A stretch of DNA of 64,000 nt from Chrysochromulina tobinii (Eukaryota). The position numbers and the translations under genes are program-made. The stretch covers positions 1 through 64,000 of the forward strand of contig JWZX01003399.1 in NCBI GenBank assembly GCA_001275005.1, in the 5' to 3' direction. A model generated the notes under the pieces. That model did no database searches. It was not told where the DNA came from and saw only the letters and a program-made list of their open reading frames with translations. Positions 2,240-58,000 of the stretch are shown piece after piece. Each line of letters starts with the position of its first letter. The first letter of the stretch is position 1.

Positions 2240-5200
2240 CTAGCGCCGAATCTTGTACATGCCCGCGCTCAGCTCGAGCTTGCCGTCCTCGACGAGGCGC
2301 TGAAGGAAGCGTTGCAGCTCGGCCTCGGAGCGATCATACCCGCGGTCGCCGCCCGAGGCGGGCACGAACATGCGCAGCATGTTGTTAATACGCGCCAACG
2401 GCAGCTCCGTCAGGTTGGTGAGCATGCCGATGACGTACTGCTCGTACACGCGCATCTCCGCATCGAGCTGTGCCTCGGCCGCGCCGCCGCCGGCGCCCTC
2501 CTCCTCGTCGTCCTCGCCGCCCGGCCGCCCCTCGCCACCCTTGCCAAGGTGCGTCGGCGCCTCATAGTTGACGTCGCCGTCGGCGGAGCGCCCCTTCTCG
2601 AGGATGAAACCACGGTTGATCCAGAGAGCCAGCCGCTTCTTAAGCGTCTGAGCGTCCACCTTGAGCTTGGCGCTGAGCGTACGCAGCGACCATTGGGGCT
2701 GCGTGCCGAAGGCATCGAGGATCGTGGCATGCAACGGCGAGCAGCGCACGTTCTTCACGGTACGGTCGGCAAAGGTCACGTCGAGCGTCACCATGCCCAG
2801 GGCAGGCTTCCAGACGAGCTTGCGAGGGGCCTTGATGTGCATGTACCTGATGAGGGGCGCCATCAGAGGGGATCAGCGACGCACTCGGGGGCCATTCGGG
2901 GAGGCAAGCAGGGGCCTGATGAGGGGCGCCATCAGAGGGGGTCAAGGACGTAATCAGGGGCCCTCGGGGAGGCAATCAGGGCCCTCTGGGAGGCAACCAC
3001 GGTCCGTGAGCGTACTGCTTCTCGTAGCGCGCCATCTCGCTCACGAGCGCCGCGGGCAGCTCAAACGTCTCATTGGCGAGCGCGGGCCAGCACAGGCGCG
3101 ACACGATCGTCGCATCGAGGACGCGAGCCGAGCCGTCGTCAAAGTGCTGCTGGATCGCGCGCGTGTTGCGCTTGGACTCGGCGATGTCCTTGAGCATCAC
3201 CTCGCATTGCGACAGGGCGGTCTCGCCGAAGCGCTTCTTGAGCAGCTCGAGGTTGCGCACCTGTGGATGAGGGAGGCGACATGGGAGGCACTCAGCGGCA
3301 ACCCTTGGCAATCGGTTAGCGTCGGGAAGCCATCCGTGGCATGCGCACCTGTGGATGAGGGAGGCAATCAGTGGCAATCAGTGGCAATCAGTGGCAATCA
3401 GAAGCGCTTCTTGAGCGTCGGGTAGCCATCCGTGGCATGCGCACCTCGCGGTCCGTGTCGTAGTCCGAGGCGGTGAGCAGCTTGTCCGCGAGCATATTGC
3501 GGAACTCATTGACGAAGAGCGCGCGGGAGCCATAGATGTTGACGAGTCGCGAGAGCACATCAGCGTTGCGCCGGGCACTCGGGCGAGACGGGTCTGCCTG
3601 GATAGGATCGGGCTGCCACGCAAGCATCGTGGCTTCGTCCGCCTTGGCCTCCTCGGCATCGGCCGCGTCGTACAGGCTGCCGTCCGCGCCGCCATCGTCC
3701 GTGAGGAGCTCGGCTTCGCTTCCCGTATTCTCAAGCAGCTCTGAAGTCTCCGGGTCCGTGAGGGAGGTGACGATCTGCCGAATCGTATCGGGGCGCGCCT
3801 TGAGGTACGCACGCACGCGCTCGGAGACGGCCTCGAGCTTGACGCCACTCGGGTCCAGGCAACTGAGCGCCTTGATCGCGGACACGTACCTGTGGGGACG
3901 CGGGGCGCCGTGGTGAGCACGTGCATGCACGGCACGCGTGCAGGCTCCGGCGTGGGTCGTGGACACGTACACTTGGATGATGTTGGCCGTGTCGACGCCT
4001 GGAAGGAGCAGTCGCGCCTCGATTGCCGCGGAGAGGGCCCTCACCTGTGGGGAAGAGGGCGCGCCGTGGTGAGCACATGCATGCAGTCGCGCCTCGATTG
4101 CCGCGGAGAGGGCCCTCACCGCGTCCGAGTGCTGCTGGGTGTGGCTCAGGCACTCCCTCAGGTCGAGGATCGCGGGCATTGAGTCGGGGAAGTCGACGAT
4201 CAGATCGAAGAGCTCTCCGATGCGCAGCGAGCCGAGCGCCTGTCGAAGGAAGAACTGCAGCCGCGAGCCACGCAAGGGTGTGAACACGCCTGGGTATGAA
4301 CAGTGACCGTCCTCAGCAATCAGGGGCAATCACGCAAGGGTGTGAACACGCCAGGGTATGAACAGTGACCGTCCGCAGCAATCAGGGGCAATCACGGGTC
4401 TTCCGAGGGGGCATCAAAGGGACCACCCGACGCAACCCGACGCACTCCGACGCAACTCGACGCACTCGTCCGCGCACCTGGAGCCGCGCGAGCCAACGGC
4501 TCATCTCGGGCGTCTCTGGCGCCATCGGCGGCGCGTTGGGCATGAGCACCGCGCGCAGCCAACGCGCGACGCTTGAGTGGACCCAACTGAGGATGTGCTG
4601 CAGGTACGGCGTGTCGAAGCGCTTGGCGCACGTGCGCAGCAGCGCCGCGTGCAGCCGCCCGTGGAGCACAGTCGATAGCGTAGGCTCCACCAACGGGAGC
4701 CAGCGAAGTTGGTGCAGCTGGGCGGAGCACGCGCGCAGCGCCTCGGCGGCGGCGGCGGCGTCGACGCCCATGTTCTCGTCCTCGTCCTCGTCCTCGCCCT
4801 CAGCGCGCTCGTCGGCGTCCCACGCAACCACCTCCTCTTCGCCCTCCTCCTCGCCCTCCTCCTCGTCGCCATGCGGAGCGCTATGCTGAGCGCCCCCCAC
4901 AGCGCTCGCGGGCGGAGGGGGCTCTCGCATGTCGATCACCGAGCGGTGCCAGCAGACCGTCAGCCACCAGGATAAGGCAGCTTGCGTGGGCGCGCGAGAG
5001 AGCACGAGCGCGTGCAGCGTCTCGAGCACCTCGTTGAACATAATCTTCCTCGGCGGAACGGCACCGACGGCGACGCGGGCGGGAGGGGCGCCGCCGGGCG
5101 CCATGCCGGGCGCCATGGACCGCCAACCGTACTCCTCGAGCACCGAGACCATCGTGAGCTGCGCGCCCACGTACGCGGAGAGCTCGTGCGTGGCGGCGAA

Positions 5201-5605
5201 GAAGGCGGCCTGGATGCGCCGCTGCACAGCGGCGGAGCTGCGCACACCCGGCGCCACAGCCGGCAGCTCGCGGTAGTGCCGCCAGAAGCGAGGCACAGCG
5301 TGGTTGAACAGCCGCTCGCGCACGCCCTCCATGAACCACGCCTTGAGCAGCCCGTACATGTTGCGATCGACGACCAGGTCGAGGTGCGCGCGCATCGCAG
5401 GCTCCTCGGCGCAGCGCCGCACGAACGCGGGTGATGCCGTCGGGCTGGCCATAATCTCCTGCTGCGACTGCACGATCGACCGCACGATCACGGTCCAGGA
5501 GGCGGTGGTCTCGATCAGCTCGGGCGTCCACTGCTCCGGGTGCTCGCGCTGGTGCTTCTCGGCGTCGCCCCAGGGCTGGGACGGGTTGAAGACGGCAAGA
5601 GGCAT
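2240..5605 (-). CDS. APC2: Anaphase-promoting complex subunit 2 (cullin homology); introns 4255-4477, 4045-4119, 3890-3970, 3261-3444, 2847-3015
   Basis: After splicing: LRIGELFDLIVDFPDS, RAYLKARPDTIR, WQPDP, LVNIYGSRALFVNEFRNMLADKLL, LELLKKRFGE...CEVMLKD, IKAPRKLVWKPALG and C-terminal winged helix YVIGMLTN..LPL.RI.NML.MF. Confidence 0.93.
2847..4477 (-). mobile_element. Cluster of five introner-like repetitive introns in APC2 (two cassette families)
   Basis: Introns 3890-3970 and 4045-4119 share GCATGCAyGTGCTCACCACGGCGC..CCCCACAG. Introns 2847-3015, 3261-3444 and 4255-4477 share CTGATTGCC-type repeats. Several copy neighbouring exon sequence. Confidence 0.7.
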
Positions 5606-16471: not shown

Positions 16472-19400
16472 ATGATCCCAGGGTTTCAACGCAAGGACCA
16501 TGCATCAGTGCCAGACCCAGCGCCTGCGCACTGGCGCTGGAATTTTGCGTCTTTGGCCTCAGCGCCTGTGCCAGTGCCAGTGGCGGCACTTCAGCCAGCA
16601 CCTGAGATGGATGCCACTGCTAGCAGGCCAACGTCAGAAGCCGCCATCGTCACCGCCGCCGCCGCCGCTGCCGTAGCCCATGCCACCGTAGTCGCCGGAA
16701 TCGCTCATCATTTCGCCGACCATCATCCCGCCGAGGAATCCCATGCCGGACCCCATCGCCACCGAGCCGACAGTGTTGCAGCCGCGGTCGTAGTACCCCG
16801 GGAGCACTTGGTCGCAGCGGGGTCGGACAGCGATGAGGATGAGCTACCCCTCAACAGCAGCCGCTCGCGACCATGCATGAGCTTCTCACCGCCTGCCCAG
16901 ATCGCCGCCTCGAGCGTGGATCCCAGGGCCAACGGGTCCCCTGTCCGAGCTCACGACTCCGGTTCTGATTCGGACGACGTCGAGGACGACGGCGACATCC
17001 CGCTTAGGACGACGATCACGCCCCCGCTGGGGGTGGAGGAAGAGAAGCGCAAGCGAGCAGCAGCGGCAGCACCGGCGGTGCCACCTGCTCCCGGGCCCAA
17101 TGTGTCCCCTGTCCGAGCTCACGACTCCTGTTCTGATTCGGACGACGTCGAGGACGACGGCGACATCCCGCTTAAGACGACGATCACGCCCCCGCTGGAG
17201 ATGGAGGAGAAGAAGCGCAAGCGAGCAGCAGCGGCAGCACCGACGGTGCCTCCTTGGCGCAGCGGTGGCGCTGCGGCGGTGGTGGAGATGCTGCGCCAAG
17301 GGAGTCCCTCGGTGCGCGGCAAGAAGGCACGCGTGTCCTCCAGCCTGCAGCACGCCGGCGGGCTTGGCATCGGCGACGCAGCTTCGGCCTTGAAGTTGAC
17401 CGCTCCAACGAAGCTAGTCGAGGAGGTCGACTGCCCGGAGCTCGGGTGCCCGGAGCTCGGGATGGGCTGGCGGTGCATCTTGAAGAAACGCACTGGCGAA
17501 AAGCACGTAGACAAGTACTACATCGGACCGGACGGCACGCAGTATAACTCGCGCGTCAAGGCTTCCCAGCGCGCCTCCGAAGATGTTGCGACCTGGGTTC
17601 AGTGTGATAAATGTGACAAGTGGCGCTCGATGCCGACGGGCTGGAAGTGCCCCGCCGTATCGAGCTCAAGGACGCTCTCCTTCGAGTGCAAGCAGCACCC
17701 GAACAGAGAGCTTGCCTCGTGCGAGGCGCCAGAGGAGGAGTTCGAAGGCGCATGGAGCTACGGCGCCGATGAGCTCGACAAGCGCGCGGCGAGTGCGCGC
17801 GCGCAAGCTGAGGCTGAGGGTCTCGTCCTTAAGCCCTCGCCGGGTGCAGCGGCTGGCGCCAGCTCGACTTCGAGTCGCTTCCTTCACGTGCAGCTGGTGC
17901 GCAGCAAGAGCGGCGAGCCGTTCCGTGCAAAGGTGCCGCTCGGCGCGAGCCTGCCCGCACAGACCCTCGGCCACTTTCCGAGTGCAGACGAGGCCGCCCT
18001 CGCGGTCGCGCGCTTCCAGCAGCTTCTCGATCCAACAGGCGTGCATGCGGCCAAGCTGGTCGGCACGACGATCGAGGTCTATTGGCCAATGGATGCGATG
18101 TGGTATTCGGCGGTTGTGGAGCGGGTGCTGTCCGACGGCGCGGTGGACGTCAGCTACGTGTCCGACGGCATGAGCGAGGCGCTCTACCTGTGCAGCGAGT
18201 GCTGGCACCGCTCGTGCGACGCGCGCGAGGACACTAAGCAGCGGGGTGGGGCCAATGGCAGCGGGATGGGTGCCACTAAGCAGCCCCGCTGCGGAGTCTG
18301 CGTCGGCTGCAATGCCACGAATTGCGGGAAGTGCAAGAATTGCCTTGAAATGCCGGAACTCGGTGGCACTGGCAACCTGCGGCAGGCCTGCATTGAGCGC
18401 TGCATTGAGCGCAGGTGCGTGGAGATCTCGAGGACCAAAGCGGCCAAGGTTGTGATCGACCAGCTCAAGACTGCAGCCGACGTCCATGCGCAGGCGCTGC
18501 TCGAGGGGCTCGAGCTGCTCCGCGACAACAAGCCGAACAGCAGCAGCGGCTACCTCAACGTGTCACGCCATGGCAAGACGTCCTTCAAGGCGACCGTGAA
18601 CATGCCGATGGAGGAGGAGAAGAGTAGCGAAGGGAAGCTTGTGGGGAAGGTGAAGACGCTTGTACGGAGTGAACTGGGCAGCTTTCGAATGGCCGAACAA
18701 GCGGCGCTTCTAGCCGCGCGCTGGCGGGCCGCCAGGCTTGAGGTCGTCAGGATCGCCGCTGCGGCAGCGCTGCAGACCATGGAGGAGCGCGAGCTGTTGC
18801 AGGCGGCGTGGGAGGAGGCGCGGGCAGCAGAGGCGCGGGCGGCAGAGGCGAGAGCAGCGAAGGCCAAGGCACGGGCGGAGGCAGAGGCGAAGGCCAAGGC
18901 GGAGGCAGAGGAGGCAAAGGCGGCAGAGGCACGGGCGGCAGAGGCAAGAGCAGCGAAGGCGGCAAAGGCGAAGGCGAAGGCGGACTCTTCCGAGCGCTCC
19001 GATAAGTTACTCGCGACACTCATTGAGTACCTCGAGAACTGCGGCGGCTCGGCGGAGATGATCGCTGGCTGGTACATCAAGACCGAACTCCGGAAGGAGG
19101 GCGCAACTGGACGCACCTGTGACTCGTACTTCATCACTCCGCAAGTGAGCGGGAGCGCAGCGCCGTCGTGCGCACAGCCCTCGCGCGCACAGCCCTGCAG
19201 GCCAAAATCAAGCCTCACGCGCCGCCCAACCCTGCCCCCACCTGCGCAGGGCAAGCGCTTCCGCTCTCGCGCAGAGGTCGCGCGCTATTTCAACCTGGAA
19301 GCCGCTCCCGGTTCGACGCTGCCGCCGCCGATGCGTCGGCATGTGCCGCCGCTAGGCATCGAGAAGACCGACGTTCACATGCCCACCTCGTCAAATGAGG

Positions 19401-19855
19401 ACATGGCGCGCTCCGTTGGGTTCTCTGCGGCGGCCGTGCAGCCCGTGCAGCCCGTGCACCCGGTGCAGGGGCCGGTACAGGGGCAGGAGGGGCCGGGGGC
19501 CGCGCAGCCGGTGCAGGGGCTCTCTGCGAGGGGCGCCGTGATGGGCGCGCAGCTGTTCGGACCCATGCCTCACGCATCGGCGATGTCCATTTCCGATCCG
19601 CCACAGCCCTCACAGGCAGACCCCATGGTCAGCGCATTCGACGGGCGCGAGGACATGGCGCGGATCCGCGAGGTGCTCACGCGGATGGGCCTCGCCATCT
19701 ACGCCGACCAATTCGAGGATCAAGGGTACGACGACTTCGAGTACCTCATCAAGATGTCGGAGCAGGGCCAGCTGGCCCGGGTTGCGGACGACGTCAACAT
19801 GAAGCCCGGCCACAAGGCCAAGTTCGTGCAGCGAGGCTTCCACGCACAGTGCTGA
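16472..19855 (+). CDS. Multidomain chromatin/DNA reader: MBD, zf-CW, AP2-like, Tudor, zf-CXXC, AP2-like, MBD, SAM; probable in-frame intron 19145-19249
   Basis: GW..KKR...DKYY.GPDG..YNSR (MBD); WVQCDKCDKWR (CW); LGHFPSADEAALA (AP2); IEVYWPMDAMWY (Tudor); RCGVCVGC..NCGKCKNC..MPELGG...QAC (CXXC); DSYFITPQ|GKRFRSRAEV (MBD); LAIYADQFEDQGYDD..MKPGH (SAM). Confidence 0.82.
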   Translation: MIPGFQRKDHASVPDPAPAHWRWNFASLASAPVPVPVAALQPAPEMDATASRPTSEAAIVTAAAAAAVAHATVVAGIAHHFADHHPAEESHAGPHRHRADSVAAAVVVPREHLVAAGSDSDEDELPLNSSRSRPCMSFSPPAQIAASSVDPRANGSPVRAHDSGSDSDDVEDDGDIPLRTTITPPLGVEEEKRKRAAAAAPAVPPAPGPNVSPVRAHDSCSDSDDVEDDGDIPLKTTITPPLEMEEKKRKRAAAAAPTVPPWRSGGAAAVVEMLRQGSPSVRGKKARVSSSLQHAGGLGIGDAASALKLTAPTKLVEEVDCPELGCPELGMGWRCILKKRTGEKHVDKYYIGPDGTQYNSRVKASQRASEDVATWVQCDKCDKWRSMPTGWKCPAVSSSRTLSFECKQHPNRELASCEAPEEEFEGAWSYGADELDKRAASARAQAEAEGLVLKPSPGAAAGASSTSSRFLHVQLVRSKSGEPFRAKVPLGASLPAQTLGHFPSADEAALAVARFQQLLDPTGVHAAKLVGTTIEVYWPMDAMWYSAVVERVLSDGAVDVSYVSDGMSEALYLCSECWHRSCDAREDTKQRGGANGSGMGATKQPRCGVCVGCNATNCGKCKNCLEMPELGGTGNLRQACIERCIERRCVEISRTKAAKVVIDQLKTAADVHAQALLEGLELLRDNKPNSSSGYLNVSRHGKTSFKATVNMPMEEEKSSEGKLVGKVKTLVRSELGSFRMAEQAALLAARWRAARLEVVRIAAAAALQTMEERELLQAAWEEARAAEARAAEARAAKAKARAEAEAKAKAEAEEAKAAEARAAEARAAKAAKAKAKADSSERSDKLLATLIEYLENCGGSAEMIAGWYIKTELRKEGATGRTCDSYFITPQVSGSAAPSCAQPSRAQPCRPKSSLTRRPTLPPPAQGKRFRSRAEVARYFNLEAAPGSTLPPPMRRHVPPLGIEKTDVHMPTSSNEDMARSVGFSAAAVQPVQPVHPVQGPVQGQEGPGAAQPVQGLSARGAVMGAQLFGPMPHASAMSISDPPQPSQADPMVSAFDGREDMARIREVLTRMGLAIYADQFEDQGYDDFEYLIKMSEQGQLARVADDVNMKPGHKAKFVQRGFHAQC
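16936..17250 (+). repeat. 168-bp-period tandem duplication within the CDS
   Basis: SPVRAHDS.SDSDDVEDDGDIPL.TTITPPL..EEKRKRAAAAAP is encoded twice with near-identical DNA. Confidence 0.9.
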
Positions 19856-22715: not shown

Positions 22716-23780
22716 CTACTGATGAGTTTGAGAACTGCTCGACGTACTTGAATCTTTGGTATGAGGAGCCCATCGCTCCGGCCGACCGTAGCCCTCAATA
22801 ATCTCGTACGAGTCGACGCGGATTTGGAAGAGGCCGACGCCCTCCGACGCGAGAAAGTTGGCCATGTTCGGATTGCGCGCGAGAAAGCGAGCACTCGCCC
22901 ACGGGAGCGCGTCCACCTCAGCTTCGGCCGTTACTTCGGCCGCCTGACCGACGGCGGTGACGAGCAATCCGTCTGCGTGGTCCCGGAGGTTGCCGGTGCG
23001 GTTGTCCCAGAGCAGCGAGACGGCCGGCCGCTCGCGCATCTGCTGCGCCTTGCGCGCTCCCCCATGCGTTGCGACGACGACGAAGCGCAGGCACGGTGAG
23101 ATGGCAAAGGCCATGAGGAACGTGGCAGGTCTGAGGTCGGCCGTTGTCGTGGCGAGCACGCACTGCACCTGCGACGTCAGGACGGCATCGATGCGCCCAG
23201 CTACGTGCGCATCCCCTCTCGCACTGGCTTCTGCGGATGGCTCGGGCTTGCGCATGCGGGCTTCTGGCCGGCCAGCAGGCCTTGACAAGGCGACAAGGCG
23301 CTCCATGTCGGACTCGAGCTTCGCAACGCGCTCACGAAGCTTGCGGACCGTCGAGCCCATCTCAGAAGCGTCGCGCAGCATGACGATCGACCCACCACCA
23401 TCGGCCGTGTGCAGGTCATTTACTGTAAACTCAGCCGTGAACAGCGTACCATCTGCTCGAAGAGCTGGCGCACGCCGCAGGTGTCGACGGTCGTATTGCT
23501 GCTTCACATCAAGCGGTCGTATGTGCCGGACGTGCTTGGGCATGATTAAATCGTTTAGAGACGAGCCCACCGCCTGGCTCGCGGTGATTCCAAACACCTC
23601 GCGTGCTCCACAATTCCACGACTGAACCCTTCCGTCGGGGCAAACGTGAATTATTGCGTCCGCAGCCGTCTGCACCGCGTGAAGTGCGAGCATTGGAGAC
23701 ATGCGGCCATCGGGAACGCAAAGTTGGCTGCTTCTCCGTAGCCAGCGCCTCGAGCAAGATCGGCGGGCGAACGACAACAT
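22716..23780 (-). CDS. PAS domain + pyridoxamine 5'-phosphate oxidase-like FMN-binding split-barrel fusion
   Basis: PAS: ADAII..DGRVQSWN.GA.EVFG....VG..L, RADGT.F. Split barrel: CVLAT, T....RK..M.ERP.VSLLWDNR. Arg/Ser-rich N-terminus. Confidence 0.8.
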   Translation of the reverse strand: MLSFARRSCSRRWLRRSSQLCVPDGRMSPMLALHAVQTAADAIIHVCPDGRVQSWNCGAREVFGITASQAVGSSLNDLIMPKHVRHIRPLDVKQQYDRRHLRRAPALRADGTLFTAEFTVNDLHTADGGGSIVMLRDASEMGSTVRKLRERVAKLESDMERLVALSRPAGRPEARMRKPEPSAEASARGDAHVAGRIDAVLTSQVQCVLATTTADLRPATFLMAFAISPCLRFVVVATHGGARKAQQMRERPAVSLLWDNRTGNLRDHADGLLVTAVGQAAEVTAEAEVDALPWASARFLARNPNMANFLASEGVGLFQIRVDSYEIIEGYGRPERWAPHTKDSSTSSSSQTHQ

Positions 23781-25285: not shown

Positions 25286-27031
25286 ATGCCGTCATCCGTT
25301 TTTGTCAACACAGCCTCTCCATTGCCGCCATCGCCGCCTGCATCGCCGCCCTCCTTCAAGTCAGCCATGAAGAAAGTGCAGATGGCCACCGCCGTCACCT
25401 CTCCGCGGATCGCTGCTCAGGTCCTCTCCATCGCAGATGACTCTGATGACGCCGACGACGATGATGGCGTAGTAGCGGTCGTCGTGAATGCGCGTGTCAC
25501 ATCCCTCACCGATAGCGAGGCGCAGGCTCACGCCAGTCTCACCGCAATCTCAAAGGCTGATCAAGGCGCTCAGGCGACAGGCGAGGGGGCCAGCACTTGT
25601 GACAAGGCGACAGACGCGGGGGCCGGCGCTGATGGCCTTGGCGGCGGCAGCATCAGCAGGAGAAATAGCTTTGCTATCAGCGACGAAAACGTCACAAACT
25701 GGTTCGGGCATGGGCCAGTTGATGCTCCTATTGAGAGTGGCAGTCCGCCAGAGCCACGAACGAGCAATGGCGTGCAGGCACCCACCTGGCTCGCGAGCCT
25801 CCTATGGCAGCTGGCCCTGATCGCTGCGTCTTGGTCGCCTCTGAAGGTGTCCTCCAGGATGATAGCAGTACGCACGCTTTGCTGTGCATGCACGTGCACG
25901 TGGGCATGTAATGGTCAATACTCTTCGTCCGGCTCGACGCCGCCCGCTACTCTCGAGGCAGTGGCGGCGCTGCCGACACAGGCGGTGGCGGCGCCGACGA
26001 AGGTTGAGGCGCTGCCGTCGAAGGCTGTGGCCGTGGCGATCGGCCCGCCCGGCGGGTCGACGATGGCGGCCGATTCGGACGGGCTCAAGAGAGCACCATC
26101 CTTTTCACGGCCCCCTCTCGTACATGCCGCTGAGGCGGCCAGGTCGGACGAGCTCAGGAGGGCGCAATCCTTTCAAAGGTCCCCGCTCGTACCTGCTGAT
26201 GAGGCGGCCAGGTCGGACGAGCTCAGGAGGGCGCAATCCTTTCAAAGGTCCCCGCTCGTACATGCCGCTGAGGCGGCCAGGTCGGACGGGCTCAGGAGGG
26301 CGCAATCCTTTCAAAGGTCCCCGCTCGTACCTGCTGATGAGGCGCGGCACCTGCCATCGATTCCTGGTATGAATGGGGAACGTGTTCGCAAAACCAGTAT
26401 ACCCGACGGCATGCCTCCGATTCTGAGCCCGGTCGGCCACGAGACAATTTCCCTGGGCTCCGACTCGATGCCAGCGAGGGATGCCAAGTCGTTGGCGAAT
26501 GCGAAACCCTTCCTCCCTTCGGAGAACTCGATCTCGGAGATGACGAAACCCTTCCTCCCTTCGGAGATCTCGATCTCGGAGATGACGAAACCCTTCCTCC
26601 CTTCGGAGATCTCGATCTCGGAGAACTCGATCTTGGAGATGACGCCGGCGAGTCATCGTTCGGCCACGACCTCCGACACAGACGCATATTGCTCAGCCAA
26701 CTCCAACAACACCAGCGCTAAGAACGGCGCCTGCGCCTCCACCAGCGCTCAAGACTACGCATACTACTCGGCCAACTCCAACACGCCCGAACGATTGAGA
26801 GCAGCACGTGTGCGTGCCGCAGAGCACGCAGCCGCAGCATTGGTAGCCATTGACCCAGGAGGCCGCGGAAATCTGATGCAACAGATTCAGGAGGCCGCGG
26901 AGCCAGCTGCTGTGGAAGCTTCAACAGACTCCGCCGAGGGAATGCCTCCGCCGGTCTCGGCGCTCGGCGCCGAGATCTACTTGCAATCCTACCGCGCGAT
27001 GAGCCGTGCCGAGGCCGATCTGAGGATCTAG
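25286..27031 (+). CDS. Hypothetical disordered protein with internal repeats
   Basis: 581-aa ORF with 66-bp repeats (AARSDELRRAQSFQRSPLV..) at ~26110-26345 and KPFLPSE.SISEMT repeats at ~26503-26643. Confidence 0.6.
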   Translation: MPSSVFVNTASPLPPSPPASPPSFKSAMKKVQMATAVTSPRIAAQVLSIADDSDDADDDDGVVAVVVNARVTSLTDSEAQAHASLTAISKADQGAQATGEGASTCDKATDAGAGADGLGGGSISRRNSFAISDENVTNWFGHGPVDAPIESGSPPEPRTSNGVQAPTWLASLLWQLALIAASWSPLKVSSRMIAVRTLCCACTCTWACNGQYSSSGSTPPATLEAVAALPTQAVAAPTKVEALPSKAVAVAIGPPGGSTMAADSDGLKRAPSFSRPPLVHAAEAARSDELRRAQSFQRSPLVPADEAARSDELRRAQSFQRSPLVHAAEAARSDGLRRAQSFQRSPLVPADEARHLPSIPGMNGERVRKTSIPDGMPPILSPVGHETISLGSDSMPARDAKSLANAKPFLPSENSISEMTKPFLPSEISISEMTKPFLPSEISISENSILEMTPASHRSATTSDTDAYCSANSNNTSAKNGACASTSAQDYAYYSANSNTPERLRAARVRAAEHAAAALVAIDPGGRGNLMQQIQEAAEPAAVEASTDSAEGMPPPVSALGAEIYLQSYRAMSRAEADLRI

Positions 27032-49022: not shown

Positions 49023-52000
49023 TCATTCCTCCTCATCCTCTTCCGCAATCGCAAGCTTTGCCCTCTTCTTGGTGTTCTTCTTGTAGGTCTCTCCCGCTTT
49101 ACCGTTAGAGCTTTTCGGCGTTGGGGGAGCAGGCGTGGTCCGACCGGAAGCTTCTCCTTTATTGCGAGAGCTGTCTTTAGGGCTGTCCTTAAAGCTTTTT
49201 TCGAGTTTTCGGCTCGATGGAATCGAGCGCACCGTCGGCGGTCGAGAATCAGGCTTCTTGCCCAATGGGTTCTTTCGGTCCGTCGCAAGATCCGCCGCTC
49301 CGTCGTCACTGGGCGGTCTTTGCTTTCCTGGCGATTGGACAGCCGCCTGCTTATTCGACATAGTCAATCGGGTGGGGGATGCTGCGTATGGCGTTTTTAA
49401 AATATGCTGGATCTTGTCGGGCCTGAGGAAGCTGCCGTGGCCGGCCTCGCACGTAAAGTAACGCGTACCACCCAAGGAGCCATCGTTCTTTCCGTTGGCT
49501 TCCGCAAACTCCACGCCTATCCAGAATCCCGGAGCGACCTCAGGCGCTTTGCCGACAAATCGAATGGTCGCTTTGCGCAGCATAGGTTCACCCTCTGGTG
49601 ATTCCGTCGTCACTTGGACCAGTTCGTTTACCTTGAACTGCACAGCCAGATCGGCCATGTACAAATCTGTCACCTCTTCAGGTTTCGTGACCTTTCTTGT
49701 GATCATCCATAGCTCGGGATTGGCTTCGAGTTTGTCTCGGAAGCGAGCGAGCAGTACCTCGCTCGCACCCTTCGTTGGGCTCGTTCGCCGCCCCGGTAGC
49801 AGGCTCGTCGGCATCATGACCATCGGGGCGCAGTAGTCGATCAAGGGAGCGGGATTGCTCTTTATGCGCGGGCTAAAGACTCGGGGCGACTGGAATGGCA
49901 ACGACAGCTGCAGCGGTCCAACTGACGTCGTCTCAGATGAAGGTGTGCTGATCAGATTTAGAATCTCCTCCACTTGCGAGCGCATGAACGCGTCTTTCAT
50001 AAATCGAAGCATCTGCAACGTATCCACAGCTGAAGCTCTCGGCGCATCGAAAGCATTTTTGCCGGGTCCGGAAGACTCAGGGATTTCCCCTTGTGGCCTG
50101 TTAATCGCGGCGAGCATCTCCGCACGTGCGCTTTGAGTCTTCCCAAGAGTCACAAGTGTCGTCGCTGCCAACTTCTGCATCTCACCCGTCGTATTCACGA
50201 GCAGGTCCACCAGCTTGATGATCAACCCTTCGCGCCGAGCAATTTTGGTGCGGTACCTGGTCTCTTGAGAAAGACCCCACAGCCCCTTGAGCACGTGTTC
50301 CACAACGGCATTAGAGGGGCTGTGGTCGCACAAGATGTCCATGAAGACAATCAGGCCGCCAGCGTCCACGATCAACGCTCGATTCGCACTCTGCGTGCAC
50401 GCAAACTCCGAGAGGACGGTGGCCACCGCCTCTTGCACTGATTCTTCCTGTGCTTCGTCCGCGTCCTGTCCAGCTCCGGTGGGTGCCGCTCCCGGGGCCG
50501 CGGATGAAGCAGGACGCGCCTGTGTTTGTGTTGTTGCGTACTGAGAGGACTGTTTTGCCCCCGAGGGCGGAGTAGAGTTTGATGGAGTCAGAGTCACCTT
50601 TGACTTGCTGTTCCGGCGCAGGCAGGTGACCAGAGACTGAATTCCGTTGAGCTGCACGAAGAGCACCTTGGTGTCTGTCGACGAACAGAGCTGCCATAGC
50701 GTGCGTGCGGCACATTTTTGCGATTGAGCTGAGCCATGCGTGAGTAACTTGACCAGCGGTTGGACACTATTCATGCCAACGATCATCGGTTTGTGCTCAG
50801 CTACTACCGAGAGGTGCCAAAGTGCACATGCTGCGTGAGCTTGCGACTCCCTGCATGAGCTCGATAGCATGACAACTAGAGGCTGGAGCCCGCCCTCCCG
50901 TACGACATCAATCTTGCTCTCGGGCAGGCGCACCAGCTCAGAGAGCACTAGCGCTGCACGCTCAGGCGGCGTGTGAAGGTCAGAGCGCTGGCCATTGCCA
51001 AGCAGTTGCACCAGCGGCGGGATGGCCCCTGCTGACGCAATGGTCGACCGTGCGGCTGGACAGCGCTCCAGAAGCATTGCCAGGCACTCTGCCGCCTTGA
51101 GCTGCGCCGATGTGTTGCGGCCGGAGAGCACGGCAACCAATGGCTTCACGACGGTGGCACGGTTGCTTGGATTGAGGCCCAAGCGGAGCATAGCGAGCTG
51201 CGCCCATTCCTGAGTTTCGGACAACTCGGAGGAGAGGAGATCAGCCAGCGGGATGGCAGCATGAATGAGAGCGAGCTGGTTCTCCTCGTTCTCGTGCGCA
51301 AGCAAGCTCACGGCACGGGCCGCAAACATCTTCGCCGCCAAATTGCCTGTAGAGAGAAGCGTGATGAGTGGTTTGATGCCTCCGTGATTCGCAACGAGCA
51401 GCTTGTTGTCGGCAAGGTCGCTCAGCATCGCCACGGCAAGCGCTGCGTTCTCGCATATGGCGGGCTTCGTATCCTGAAGCAATCGGATCAGTAGCGGGAT
51501 CGCGCCCTTTTGTGCTATCTCTGCCTGGTTGTTCGGATTGTCGACGGCAAGCGTGGCGATCGACTCGCAAGCCGCCTCATATCCTTCTGGGCTGGCGTGC
51601 TTCTCCAGCATGCTCACCAGCGGCGCAATGGCTAGGGCTTGCGCCACGCGCACCTGAAGAGGCTTGTTACCGCGACAGATAGCCGCGAGGGCGCGCGCCG
51701 CGCCCAGCCTCAGTGCATCAGTTTTCGAAAGCCATTTGACAAGTGGTTCGATGGCTTCGCAGACCAGTTTCTGGCGATCGACGTCGTCGGCGGCCAGATG
51801 GGCCAGCCCGGTCGCAGCCGCGCGCATCGCCGTCAGCGAGAGCGTTTTCTCTGCGCTGAGCGCCTCGATGAGCAGTCGAATACCCTTCGCTTTGATGATC
51901 TCATTGTGATTCTCATTATCCTCCGCAATGAAGGCGAGCACGCAGATGGCGTGCTCCTGTGATTGAGGACTGATCTTGCCGAGGGACAGCGACTGAATGA

Positions 52001-55000
52001 CAGCAGGAATGCATCCCTCCATGACCAGACCGCGGCGTTGATTGCGGTCGTTGATCACCGTCAAGCTTGACAGGGCATACTCTTGAGCCTCGACACGATC
52101 ATCGTTCAAGCCTGCCTTGAGAAGGTCAACTAGCGGAGCCACGCCACCCTGCGTAGCCGCCTGCTTTTGATGTCGCTTGGCGTCGCCCCCACTGGCATTG
52201 TTATTGCGCAGAGTGGTGCCGGCACGCTGACGAACATCAGCCTTGTTGCTGCTCAGCAGCTTGACCAGCTCTGTGGTCACTTGGACACGCAAATCAGCCG
52301 AGACTTGTGCAAGATTCGAGAGTGCGTCCGAGGCCATGGACTGCGCTTCTTCAGACCCGCTCTTGAGCTGCCGCACGAGCTGAACGGCACAGCTCGTGCG
52401 AGTGAAAGCGTCCCGATTTTCAGCATTGAAGGACATAGTGTACAATACGCGCGTGGCGTGAGTCTGGGCTTCCAGTTTCGACACTTGTGCGGCCGTTTGT
52501 TGTGACACTTCTGAAGTTTCCTCACCTGCGCTGGCGAGCATGGCAACCAGACCCGAGCATACAAAGAACTGGTTTGACGGGTTATCTTTTGTCAAGGCCA
52601 ACAGGGCGGCGTTCACGTGCTTCTTGGTTCCGGCGGAGCCTCCATCAAAGAGCGGAATGAGCAGATCCACGCCATTGGAATCTGCAATTAGGACGCGGTT
52701 ATCGGCATTCGCCGCAAGCCGTTCGAGGGCGCCGCTCGCTGTCTCCCGGGCAGCTTTGTTGACCGCGACGTATTTGAGAAGGCCGCAAAGCTTCGGAATG
52801 CCCCCGGCTTCGGCAATGAGCTCCTGATTGGTAGGCTCCTCCGAGAGGCTCCAAAGGGCACCGGCTGCATCATAGTGGATGTCGGGGTGATCATCGAGCA
52901 GAGCGATGAGCAACGGTATACCTCCCTGGTGAGCAATCAACTTCTGGTTGCGCTCGTGGCCCTTTGAGAGACTCCAGAGAGCTGAGCAAAGCTCCTGCTG
53001 CGTCTTATGATGCTCGCCCCTGTGTATACCCTCGTCATCTTCATTCGGATCATACTTGAAGGAGGCTAGAGTGGGCTGCCTTGTCAAATTGCCTTTAGAC
53101 GCATTGTCAGATTTATGCAGTGTGTGCAGCTTGGGGGTAAGAAGAGAGACCGTGAGCTCGATGCATCCGGCAAAAGCGAGAGAATCCTGGTTGCGCCGTC
53201 CGACCACGTCGGCGAGATCAGCGCTTGCGAACCTCGAGATGGCACGCGCGGCTTTCTCCTGGGTATCACTCGACGGACTCGAGTCGCGAAGAAGCTGGAC
53301 CAGAAGCTGTGAGATCTTCGTCTGGTTCTGTTCGTGATTCAGTGCTAGACTGTGGAATGCGCCCGCTGCCTGTTCTTGACCTCGCGGTGTTGTCCGTCCC
53401 ACGAGCTTAACGAGGGATTCCATGCCTCCTGCGCCTGCAATTAATGTCTGAATTTTAGTGTTCTTCGACGCGAGACACCATAAGGCTCCAGCAGCTTCTT
53501 CTTTTGGTGATTCCGTCGGAGCACTGTTCACTAGAAAGATGAGAGGCTGAAGCGCTCCATGGTCGGTGAACGCTCCCTGAGTCAGCTTGTTGTCGCGGGC
53601 AAGCTCGGCAATGGCTTTAGATACATTTGCAAGGACCTGGACCTGTAACTCATCGATCGTTTCCTCTGTCGAAGGGCTTCGATTCGGTCCCACGCTCTTG
53701 GCCATCGCCGACACAGTCTTCTTGAGTAGCTCAACGAGAACGTTGACTCCATTTGCTTTCTGGACTATATCCTGGTTCGCCGGTCCGCCTGCTGCAATGC
53801 CTGAAAGAGCATACGCCGCCGCTTGTTGAGCTGACTTATTCTCCGTCCGCAGAAGAGTGATGAGTGGCTCCGTGCAATCCTTCTCGGCAGCGTCCGTGGA
53901 TGACTTGGGATCCAACCATGCGATGACTCCAAGAATGCTTGAGGCCTTAGCCTTGCATTCTATGGCTTGCTTTGATTTCAAGAGCGCGATCAACCTTGAG
54001 ATGCCGCCTTCATTGGTCACAACGACGGCATGCTCTTTGTTGCAGCGGGTCATGTCATCAAGTACAGTTGTGGCACAGCTCTGAGCTTCCTTACCAAGGT
54101 CCGTGCCGTCAGAGTCGAGAATTTTCACGAGCAGGGGAACACCACCGTGAGCCGCAATCGTCTTCACGTTCTCATCCGAGTCACCGGACAAACGCGACAT
54201 AACAGCTGCAGCGAGCATCCGGATCTTTGCATTAGCACTCTTGAGCTGATGGCAAAGCATCATGAAGGGCCCCGCGTTCGCAATAGCATGGCGGTTGGAG
54301 ATATCTGTTTCTGAGCCGGACGACAGCGTGAGGAGAAGGCCCGTAACACACTCTTGAGCAAGGTCACTTCCAGCGCCGAGCAGCGCCACGAGTCCAATGG
54401 CGAGGCCGGTCATGATCTCAGCGTCACCACTGTTAGCTAGCGTGTAGAGCGTCTTAGACGCCGCTGCCCGTCCCTCTTCAGTTGCGCCGTTGCTCAACAC
54501 CGACACCAACGGTGAGATGGCTCCAGCGCCCACAATCACCAAGGGACACTTGGGGTGACTCTGGGCGAGCGCTTGAAGGTCGTGCGCAGCGCGCGACACG
54601 ACACTTGCGTCGGTGTTATCGAGCAAGCCGACGAGGCGCTTAGCAATCTGAGCCTGGTTATCGCTATTTTCAATTGCAAGTCGCGCCAAACCCTTGGAGG
54701 CGTACCGGATCCCCTCTTCATTGCTATCAGAGAAGAGGGATACAAGGGGTCTGATGCCGCCGTTAGCTGCGATCGCCCTCTGCAATTCTTTGTCCATGGC
54801 CAGGTGCCAAAAGCACGCGGCAGCTTTGATTTTGCCTTCCATGCGACCGTGCTCACACAGCTTCACTAAAGGTGGCACTCCACCAGCGTCGAGAATGGCC
54901 AGGATCACGTTGTCGCGCCGTCGGTTTTTGAAGGTTTCATCTGAGAGACTCGTGCTGTGGGTGGCATCTGTTTCGAGTCGGCTCGACTCATCTGGATCCT

Positions 55001-58000
55001 CTTCCTTCGACTCTCGGTGAGTTCTGTTGTGCCCCGAAACATAGCCATCGAGCAGCTCCGCTATGGCGGCTGCACATGCGTTCTGAGCCTTTGGCGTGCC
55101 GCTTTTCACGAGAGTGACTAGATCCACCAAGAAAGATGGGTAGCGAATCAACTTCTTCTGATTACCAGTATCATGGCAGAGCGACCAAAGCGTTGACGCG
55201 GCAGCCTCTTGAGCAAGTTGACTGCCGTCGCGAATGAGCGATAAGAGGGGCGGCACGCCGTTTTCCTGTAGGACGGCATCCTGCATGCACTTATTGCGTG
55301 ACGTAAGACGTGCGAGGGTGCTTGCGGCCTGCTCTTGCATGCCAATTCGTGCTTGAAATGCAACTCCGCTTCCCACGAATAACTCTGGGATGTCGGTGCA
55401 GCCCTGGATGCCTACACCAACCACGGACCAGCCTCCGATGACTGCAGGTTTGAGGATCTCCCCAGGATTGAGGTTTGATCCGTCTAGCATCGCGATAAGC
55501 GTCGGAATTCCACCAGCCTCTTTGATGTGCATGCGCCTTTGCTCAGAGCCCACCATCGAAAAATGAAAACCTTCATCATCAGAGGCGAACTCGATGTCGT
55601 CGACGTTGAGTTCATCGTCATCGATTTCATCCCCTGCATCCACTCCAGCTGCACTGTCATCAAGTGCATGGGGATCCGCTTCCTCAGCCTCCACCTTTGC
55701 ATCCTTCGCTCCCGTCTCCTTCTCGTGCATGTGTTCGTCTTTGTCATCGTCGACGGCGAGGTGAGCAAGGGCACGCGCGGCTGTCTCCGGCGTGCCAAGA
55801 CCCTTATCGCTCAGGAGCTTGACCAATGGTTCGATCGCTCCAGCGTTCGCAATAATGTCACGATTCCTGGTGACAAGTGCTAGGGCGGCGAGGGCAGATG
55901 CAGAAATCTGTTGGGTGCCGGGGGAACCTTTGGTGAGGAGGCGTACCAGTGGCTTAATGCTACCTGCTTTCGCAATGCTCGCTGAAGCCGAAGGGCTACC
56001 CTCCGCCAGCCGAACCAGTGTCATCGCTGCAAGCTGCGGGCCGCTGTCGCTCTCGGCACGCAGAAGCTTGACTAGAGGCACAATGGCGTTGGCTTGAAGG
56101 ATCTTTCGACGGTTCGCAGGCAGCGTTGCAAGGTGCCACAGCGCACACGTAGCTTTCTCCTTGGCCTCTAGAGAACTCTTTTTGACGATTTCCACAAGAT
56201 TTGGGATGGCACCAAGCCTCCCAACGATCGATTGCGTCGCGGCGTTATTCCCAACGATCGCGAGCAATGCCTTTGCGACTGGCAGTTGGACCGTCTCGTC
56301 AGCCATGGCCACGCCCATCCACGCAATTAGAAACTGTATACCACCGCCCTTGGAGAACGCGTCCTGATTCGGGCCATCATCCTCGCACAATGTGCCCACT
56401 GCGAGCAAGAAGCGCCTCGCGCGAGCTGCAGATGTGTTTGTATCCAGTGAAGCAATCATCTTTTTTGTGATGATGGCACGATTCTCGTTGTGACTTGTCG
56501 CCAGGGCGGCGAGCGCTCCAGCTGCGTGTGCTGACGATGCATCTGAAGCGCCGAAGGCCAACATGCTCAGCAGCGGGTCGATACCTCCTAGTTGCGCGAT
56601 CATTGTCTTGATGGGAGTGTTGTCTTTCGCGAGCGACCACAGAACGGCTGCAGATTCCTCCTTGGTCTCTGCTGAGCCATCACGCACGTTGGCGCATATG
56701 GGAGGAATCGCTCCAGCCTTCTGAATCGCAGACTGATTATCTGGATGGTCCCTGGCGAGAGCAGCGAGTGCGCCAGCTGCATTTGCTTTTAGCTTGCTCA
56801 CCGGGTGGCTCAGCAGACTCACCAACGGAATATGAGCGCCTTCGTTCAAGGATAGAGTCTGTATGTACTTATTCTCGTTTGCTAGGTTTCGGATTGCTTC
56901 AGCCGTCAGCTCACAGAGCTTGACGCCCGTAGCTTCCTTAAGATAGACGGTGAGAGTCTGCACGAGGATGGCTACGCCCTGGGCTGCAGCAATGGCCGCC
57001 TGCGTCTTCTTGTTCTGATAGGCGAGCTTTGAGAGGGCGCTCACCGCATTCTCGAGCACAGTTGTTGACTTCTCCTTGAGAAGCTCGAGAAGCTTCGGAA
57101 TGCCGCCAGCCTCGAGAATACTGATGCGGTTCTCCGTGGACTCGCGTGCCAGGTTGACAAGCGCAGCAGTTGCTTCCTCCTTTGCCGACATCGTTTGGCT
57201 AGCTTCCAACATACCCACGAGGCGTTGGATGATGATGACACGAGTAGGTTTCTCAATCGAGAGCTTCACGAGCGCAGCCTCCGCATGCCCACGTGAGACC
57301 TGGTTTGAACTGCCGAGGAGCAGCACCAGGGGAGCGATGCCTCCCGACTCGGTAATGAGGATGCGGCATTTCTCTGTCTGAGCAAGTGCGACTAGCGCAC
57401 CACCGGCCTCCTCCTGAGCCTCGCTTCCCATGGTACCGTTCAGCAGGCTGACGAGGGGTGGAATCGCGCCAGCAGCGGCGATCTCGTTGGCCTTCTCTAT
57501 GGTTGCCCTTGGCGGCGCGATCGGCGCGATCGGCGTGGACGTCACACTTTTCTTATCGGGAGACGGAGAGATGATATCTTTCCTGTCCACATCTTTCTTT
57601 TCCTGCGATTCGACATCGTAAGCGAGTCGGGCAAGCGTCGCAGCAGCATATCGTTTCGAAGCCTTCAGAGAGGTCTCCGCAATCCACTTCTTCATATCCT
57701 CGGTTTGCTCTAGCCGGTTTGCGGTACTCGCTTTCGCAGTCTCTATGATCGCTTTGAAGTCAGCTGCTTGGTGGTGGTTTATCTTAGTCGACATCATGGT
57801 TGCTTGCCGCAATCGTTCTTTCAAGCTGAGTTTTGGCTGAGATTTCACTTCACCGAGTAGCGCGACGAGAGGAAGAATGCCCCCGCCCTGATCGATGGCA
57901 ACCTTGTTGGACGGAATGCAGGAGAGCTCGGAAAGACAGGCAGCGGCGTACTCCGGTGAGCGGCCCTCCCCGCTGCTGAGCAATTTGATCAGCGGCGTGA

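Follow-up and report, generated by a model that had tools for sequence, protein, structure and literature searches.

The origin of new spliceosomal introns is a long-standing question, and surveys credit most mass gain to transposon introners that resemble one another from end to end. The window analysed here, a 64-kb stretch of Chrysochromulina tobinii DNA, brings this question down to a single site in the gene APC2 (ANAPC2), where the coding sequence at 4008-4045 recurs at 4083-4120 with 38/38 identity around 37 unique nt. Is the segment between these copies a spliced intron, is it young, and what made it? A first-pass annotation of the sequence had described this exact direct repeat and its insert correctly, and had read them as an intron caught at birth through insertion of a discrete 37-bp cassette. 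The follow-up below supports the intron and its probable youth, and leads to another view of how it was made.

The APC2 gene and its introns

The 877-aa product of the gene matched the Pfam families ANAPC2 and TPR_ANAPC2, and the nearest named relatives of its last exon are haptophyte sequences (Prymnesium parvum 58%, Calcidiscus leptoporus 56%). The 877-aa frame is obtained once 4045-4119 and four other introns are taken out (Table 1). GC content is 62% at the present locus, and passages of the Chrysochromulina report PMC4580454 give 63.4%, with roughly one intron for each gene. All ends of two recurring intron-tail families found in the 64-kb window, here called family A and family B, fall in APC2, and many of the genes around it take the form of long open frames.

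Table 1. Features of the APC2 gene, in positions of the window.
Feature	Position	Strand	Description and evidence
APC2 (ANAPC2) coding gene, haptophyte type	2240..5605	-	six exons, 877 aa; RNA contigs
Intron 1, 223 nt	4255..4477	-	internal 62-bp tandem duplication; RNA loose end at 4265
Upstream repeat copy	4083..4120	-	last G of exon 2 (4120) and first 37 nt of intron 2; gives the GT donor
Intron 2, 75 nt, GT-AG	4045..4119	-	5' half is the exon duplicate, 3' half the family A tail; RNA joints
Family A tail of intron 2	4045..4086	-	invariant core from 4084; pyrimidine tract; CAG
Downstream repeat copy	4008..4045	-	final G of intron 2 (4045) and first 37 nt of exon 3, VRALSAAIEARL
Intron 3, 81 nt	3890..3970	-	second family A tail; joint skipping 81 nt in three RNA runs
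Intron 4, 184 nt	3261..3444	-	tails of family B (10-nt tandem repeats) and an internal tandem unit; RNA pieces
Intron 5, 169 nt	2847..3015	-	two family B-like tails; RNA pieces

The donor of intron 2 comes from the duplicated exon start, as had been proposed, and 4119..4045 reads GT..AG on the minus strand. The other proposed splicing signals, a branch-like motif (4075-4069, a putative branch point), a pyrimidine tract and the AG, are supplied by the inserted part, which proved to be a repeated sequence free of terminal inverted repeats (TIRs). The edge of the 37-bp insert, by contrast with the earlier description, is not the edge of the repeated sequence: the core starts at 4084, 2 nt inside the repeat (4 nt with the common leader), and 4086-4083 belongs to both tail and exon duplicate as a 4-nt microhomology. 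The 5' end of intron 3 holds a 14-nt remnant copy of the exon-4 start with one mismatch, and a 16-nt exact copy of exon-5 sequence lies near the 5' end of intron 4; no significant exon duplicate remains in intron 5. The 3' end of intron 1 is weakly like the end of the upstream exon (a 9-nt exact match).

Intron 1 also contains a 62-bp tandem duplication at 4269-4392, in which CAG|GC of the downstream unit corresponds to CTG in the upstream unit; the acceptor in use, 4255, belongs to neither unit. A candidate acceptor at 4290 was rejected because it breaks the frame, which 4255 preserves. The stretch 4255-4386 was kept in one RNA contig (run X16), from which intron 1 may be slowly spliced.

Several other features of the window were recorded. 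A 69-bp unit is present about three times in frame at 26131-26330 within a 581-aa ORF that gave no Pfam match, and an uninterrupted 3552-aa ORF at 49023-59681 carries armadillo repeats and a C-terminal CAP-Gly domain. A 1127-aa protein at 16472-19855 has zf-CW and zf-CXXC domains, a weak MBD match and an internal repeat spaced 168 nt (16962/17130), and at 22716-23780 a PAS domain is joined to a pyridoxamine 5'-phosphate oxidase-like domain.

The 75-nt intron in DNA and RNA contigs

DNA unitigs cross both junctions (4016-4089 and 4061-4112) at single-copy depth, with values of 49 versus 45-49 in run X12 and 93 versus 69-82 in run X1, and the unitig of the 38-mer in X1 stands at about double depth (172); both runs are contigs and not raw reads, and either may be the window's own source. 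Among the matches listed for the window, two other groups of exact 38-mer repeats lie less than 500 nt apart, both within tandem coding repeats.

RNA contigs of four of the six runs skip the segment 4045-4119; being contigs, they give no retention rate. The joint, scored as a skip of 75 nt with CT..AC ends, occurs in X18, X19 and X20 and is missing from DNA run X1, while record 14 of X16 spans the region with exactly 47 nt, the expectation after loss of introns 2 and 3. The contig of X15 breaks at 4091, as the DNA does, which hints at some unspliced form, and run X17 has no listed contig over 4045-4119. There are 39 equivalent placements of the joint, two of them canonical (GT-AG at 4119/4045 and GC-AG at 4092/4018). 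Retention of the 75 nt, which are in frame and stop-free, would add 25 residues; these are present in none of the 12 spanning orthologues (15 aligned, three non-spanning), although orthologous proteins, which depend on how their genes were called, cannot show that an intron is absent.

The 75-nt APC2 intron is therefore real and spliced, and its excision restores APC2 exactly, as claimed at first pass. An assembly artefact, or an in-frame insert retained in the mRNA, is scarcely credible: it could appeal to the use of contigs, to DNA runs that are possibly the window's source, to the stop-free frame and to the break of X15 at the repeat, but the junction unitigs are single-copy beside a repeat unitig of double depth, the skip is found in RNA only, the insert is missing in orthologues and the identical build recurs in many independent assemblies. 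Retention in mRNA, duplication during assembly and tail copies without exon duplications, the three outcomes named beforehand as fatal to the claim, were all examined, and none overturned it.

Family A tails across metagenome contigs

An exact-pattern scan of metagenome contigs for the family A tail, with a pattern that itself required the CAG ending, gave at least 123 loci, with about 740 estimated. Among the matches listed, 133 reduced to 101 distinct sites with enough flank, and 75 of the 101 carry upstream of the tail a copy of the downstream exon start, 15-51 nt long. The same test found an exon-start duplicate in 5/1000 mismatched pairs and in 2/98 same-locus shifted windows. The long target duplication predicted from the APC2 copy is thus found widely; the 26 listed sites of the 101 that have no duplicate count against a reading in which introns are made by templated copying. 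Within the same 75 listed sites, 64 duplicates begin at exon base 1 and 67 have GT as their first bases, the implied introns measure 57-94 nt in 73, and intron lengths modulo three (25/26/24) do not favour multiples of three.

Family A behaves as a multi-copy family inserted into unrelated exons, and splicing was observed for the two copies in the window. The tail is sense-oriented in 79 of 93 scored loci (33 were skipped for repeats), which is consistent with an all-sense orientation given that the classifier scored 222/247 on known sense genes. The only clear antisense candidate among the both-strand loci is a diverged antisense tail beside a sense copy at L032 and L066, near 308. L018, L048 and L074 were each hit more than once at a single site, the events differing in duplicate length or in family. 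The pattern had no match in the prokaryote genomes. In the viral collection it had a single match, L124 (4496-4554), where a contig ends in a family A tail; this is probably host DNA.

What moves

A G precedes the core in 126/127 tails and the core ends at CAG, whereas its 5' side is ragged. Among the 75 ungapped sites, 49 junctions have a spacer of 1-28 nt; few of these spacers could be traced to a source, a point against templated copying. With one tandem case also dropped, 25 direct joins are left. Microhomology of at least 2 nt (2-6 nt) is present in 19 of these, compared with 0.21 expected in simulated joins (p 5.5e-9).

Three loci or pairs indicate what was carried along. Locus L022 holds 25 nt of the leader of L093, 18 nt of which are the exon-derived duplicate of L093 itself. 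Locus L020 consists of the L018 tail plus 7 nt of the downstream exon of L018, with 6-nt target matches on both sides, and L097 and L099 share one 70-nt intron in unrelated exons. These parent-child pairs have no other aligned sequence in the flanks examined, though members of a pair may lie far apart in one gene. L073 was considered as a parent for the leader of L097/L099 and set aside as ambiguous, for at both loci this leader is also partly similar to the exon start of the locus itself.

The same geometry occurs with an unrelated second family. Family B ends in 10-nt tandem repeats plus CATCAG, and its set of 35 ends (27 distinct, six dropped for repeat DNA) gave an exon duplicate in 10/21 sites compared with 11/420 controls. 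Eight of the ten duplicates start at exon base 1-2; L039 and L062 may be one site. A looser scan for further families yielded for the most part tandem repeats and shifted views, and the family B test took its place. A mirror build was found in sense orientation at L025 (near 731) and L096 (near 355), in which a repeat-rich sequence carries the donor and the end of the upstream exon is duplicated at the 3' end of the intron; at L025 this duplicate measures 40 nt.

Models with a TIR or a hairpin were rejected, as the ends are unpaired and the window cassette folds no better than shuffles (z +2.8 and +1.3). Duplicate length is spread continuously over 15-51 nt, unlike the short fixed target-site duplication (TSD) of TIR elements or MITEs. 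The ragged 5' end, the copied flanks of other copies, the carry-over of exon sequence and an unrelated family of identical geometry point away from one discrete element and towards the copying of intron ends, and the self-contained 37-bp cassette of the first-pass annotation is not supported.

Presence/absence alleles and possible local copying

Allelic pairs in which one member is empty, a comparison that had been suggested for APC2, were found exactly at other loci. The 85-nt and 78-nt introns of L111 are missing from L048, with exons identical at 273/275 positions; the 92-nt intron of L083 is missing from L055 and L088; and the second tail unit of L048 is missing from L098. The empty alleles lack duplicate plus tail exactly. 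Gain is the simpler reading of such alleles, and precise loss between repeats or through cDNA is also possible; that L048 is without two adjacent introns is what cDNA-mediated loss would give, and weighs against templated copying. The 75-nt APC2 intron is probably young and one of a large polymorphic class. Its supposed capture at birth is plausible from the 38/38 identity, though undated; the empty alleles belong to other loci and none was found for APC2, to which the one lake run searched gave no match. The only difference between duplicate and exon in the 92-nt polymorphic intron of L083 is one block, a perfect 10-nt palindrome of the kind that fold-back synthesis would leave; it is a single case.

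The mean distance between tails is no smaller within genes than between them (5.9 versus 5.6, p 0.77). The nearest tail lies in the same gene, however, at nine of 33 sites compared with 0.7 expected, and in the same locus at seven of 30 compared with 0.5 expected (p 0.0005; no manual merges, permutation within source class), a post hoc statistic that was picked after the mean-distance result and after near-identical pairs had been seen. A minority of copies look locally derived, and gene conversion between neighbours, contrary to templated copying, could mimic this pattern. Exon starts are common to near-identical tails in 7/119 compared with 195/8009 (p 0.03), and the result for identical tails is not significant.

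How the introns may be made

With slightly better than even confidence, we read these introns as products of short-homology template switching, in which the 3' end of an existing intron is copied into an exon, and not as insertions of a transposon with fixed ends. A nick, break or stalled strand would free an antisense 3' end at an exonic G|GT, and the freed end would pair with the exon that follows an existing intron, at its GT-starting edge; the intron used would often belong to the same gene. About 40-70 nt of the parent intron's tail would be copied, sometimes with the parent's flank, and these copied stretches are seen directly in the sequences. The strand would return to the target 15-51 nt downstream via 2-6 nt of microhomology, a step for which the junctions display the geometry, and as a consequence the 15-51-nt target stretch would be copied twice. 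The GT of the upstream copy and the AG of the tail serve as splice sites, and splicing, as observed, restores the reading frame exactly. Finally, the new downstream exon would itself start with GT, so that the new intron could act as both template and target and the process would feed itself.

The proposed annealing step draws mostly on the L020/L018 pair and on the GT bias, because the sharing of exon starts is weak. Selection for splicing would account for the GT start and the 57-94 nt length of the survivors, and the GT bias, to the disadvantage of templated copying, is also explained by donor selection. Insertions made by polymerase theta or template switching have microhomology at their junctions and draw on templates near the break. 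Both features are found here, with the 3' junction less well supported than the 5' junction. DNA repair by polymerase theta or fork switching and reverse transcription on unspliced pre-mRNA would leave equal geometry, and we incline mildly to DNA repair. The broader proposal is that intron gain here is element-free and self-feeding, with introns before GT exons as templates, G|GT as targets, a preference for the same gene and no transposon identity; to this we give a little less than an even chance.

The best-surviving alternative makes the tails 5'-truncated SINE-like or non-LTR copies, produced by target-primed reverse transcription (TPRT) from a few master transcripts, with a 3' end that happens to be a splice acceptor. 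A fixed 3' end, a ragged 5' end and a variable duplication are the standard geometry of TPRT. This geometry is found here, with microhomology at the ragged end and the fixed edge abutting the 3' end of the element; subfamily leaders are common across genes (7/25 identical tails compared with 354/8103), and the strong conservation of the tail core across strains is what a master element, in preference to templated copying, would lead one to expect. Long variable duplications, more than half of them over 50 bp, are described for Dualen LINEs of Chlamydomonas in parts of PMC9977147, and non-LTR introners make up 5% of the classified families in the text available of PMC12130899. The copies, however, have no poly(A) or simple-repeat tail and end in CAG against the exon (an ending set by the search pattern), and apart from short leaders and 10-nt tandem repeats no long upstream sequence is common to the 124 short loci with flanks of 300-600 nt. 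No reverse transcriptase domain was found among the 19 long ORFs of the window, and neither these ORFs nor the 124 short loci yielded a full-length master copy with a reverse transcriptase or a Pol III promoter. The same-locus bias, the parental exon sequence carried on both sides and the all-sense-compatible orientation also speak for templated copying over this origin, which we consider unlikely while giving it more weight than any other alternative.

Less probable still, and in our view decidedly doubtful, is a Replitron-like HUH transposase that moves minimal non-autonomous units by copy-and-paste. Replitron-1, as described in sections of PMC10288648, inserts in an orientation-specific manner and has a fixed end, a fuzzy end derived from the parent flank and variable-length duplications, three signs that recur here, and one Replitron protein was recovered from the C. 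tobinii genome according to the same sections. The present tails nevertheless lack a hairpin and any short direct terminal repeat, and a complete tail falls short of the 52 bp that each end of Replitron-N1 has in common with Replitron-1. The target does not correspond to RG in the matching orientation, and the existence of two unrelated families and of mirror builds, together with a 'fixed' end that in L020 extends 7 nt into the parent exon, fits poorly with a transposase.

It is very improbable that these are older introns whose tails were homogenised by gene conversion, with duplicates made by tandem duplication of 50-100 bp and empty alleles by deletion between the repeats: tandem duplication of splice-site or coding DNA is common here (4269-4392, 26131 onward, L005) and deletion between direct repeats is a route proposed for intron loss in portions of PMC3296678, but a plain tandem duplication would leave an acceptor remnant before the upstream copy, whereas the sequence upstream at 4120 is conserved coding sequence, and both the start at exon base 1 in 64/75 and the foreign exon-derived flanks would go unexplained.

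If the element-free route of templated copying is true, introns beget introns, and their products escape introner screens in which both ends are compared. With many young polymorphic introns, intact birth marks, traceable parent-child pairs and a culturable alga, the mechanism is directly testable.

Comparison with known systems

The introner screen described in parts of PMC9860276 demands similarity at both the 5' and the 3' boundary of an intron. The 5' halves of the present introns are locus-specific exon copies, with L097/L099 as the exception, and published screens would therefore miss them because both intron ends must match, which implies that introner censuses undercount processes in which half of the intron is host exon. 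Clean empty sites, which mark introner presence/absence, were found here. Sections of PMC9860276 report introners whose TSDs are short, among them families of marine Chrysochromulina in which a 4-bp TSD carries the 5' site, and the portion available of a 2025 survey lists no introner family for C. tobinii (PMC12130899). The same portion describes family fam24 of E. huxleyi as unclassified, with '10bp terminal direct repeats', co-opting the 5' site and carrying the 3' site, and this may be a related case. The 16-nt core motif gave no match in parts of the PMC9860276 and PMC12130899 supplements, tables that may hold no sequences. Other routes of intron gain are treated in parts of PMC3296678, PMC8469720, PMC11282704 and bioRxiv 10.1101/051292, and no description of the build of exon duplicate plus intron tail was found in the literature covered, mostly papers outside subscription.

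According to excerpts of bioRxiv 10.1101/2020.10.14.339549, dinoflagellate introners work alike in that the repeat gives the acceptor, the duplicated target gives the donor and the mRNA is unchanged. Those elements have a fixed TSD of 4-8 nt, TIRs and the whole intron in common, whereas the present introns have no TIR, share only the tail, and consist for about half of their length of a variable duplicate of 15-51 nt. Replitron-1 and Replitron-N1 (parts of PMC10288648) are similar in one fixed end, an orientation-specific target, a fuzzy end from the parent flank and a variable TSD, and differ from the present tails, which have no direct terminal repeat or hairpin, a size of 40 nt and two unrelated families. 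Coding sequence and introns are places in which Replitron insertions are under-represented (PMC9977147), and the sections concerned describe no intron-making by them. The TPRT insertions of non-LTR elements such as Dualen-4b, with long TSDs (same sections of PMC9977147), match in the precise 3' end, the truncated microhomologous 5' end and the variable TSD; here, in contrast, no poly(A) and no long element were found, and a local and all-sense bias is present.

The repair of staggered double-strand breaks in Daphnia, as given in parts of PMC4202315, likewise yields new polymorphic introns in which the neighbouring exon is repeated at the far end. The Daphnia repeats measure 4-12 bp; those found here are longer, at 15-51 bp, and have a recurring intron tail as filler. 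Tandem genomic duplication also turns a duplicated exon into a splice site, but without a foreign insert, and introns of Oikopleura also spread nearby, but as whole short introns (both in passages of bioRxiv 10.1101/051292 and PMC3296678). The present intron works like an acceptor-carrying introner, yet as far as tested it belongs neither to the TIR elements, nor to the end-to-end introners, nor to the Replitrons.
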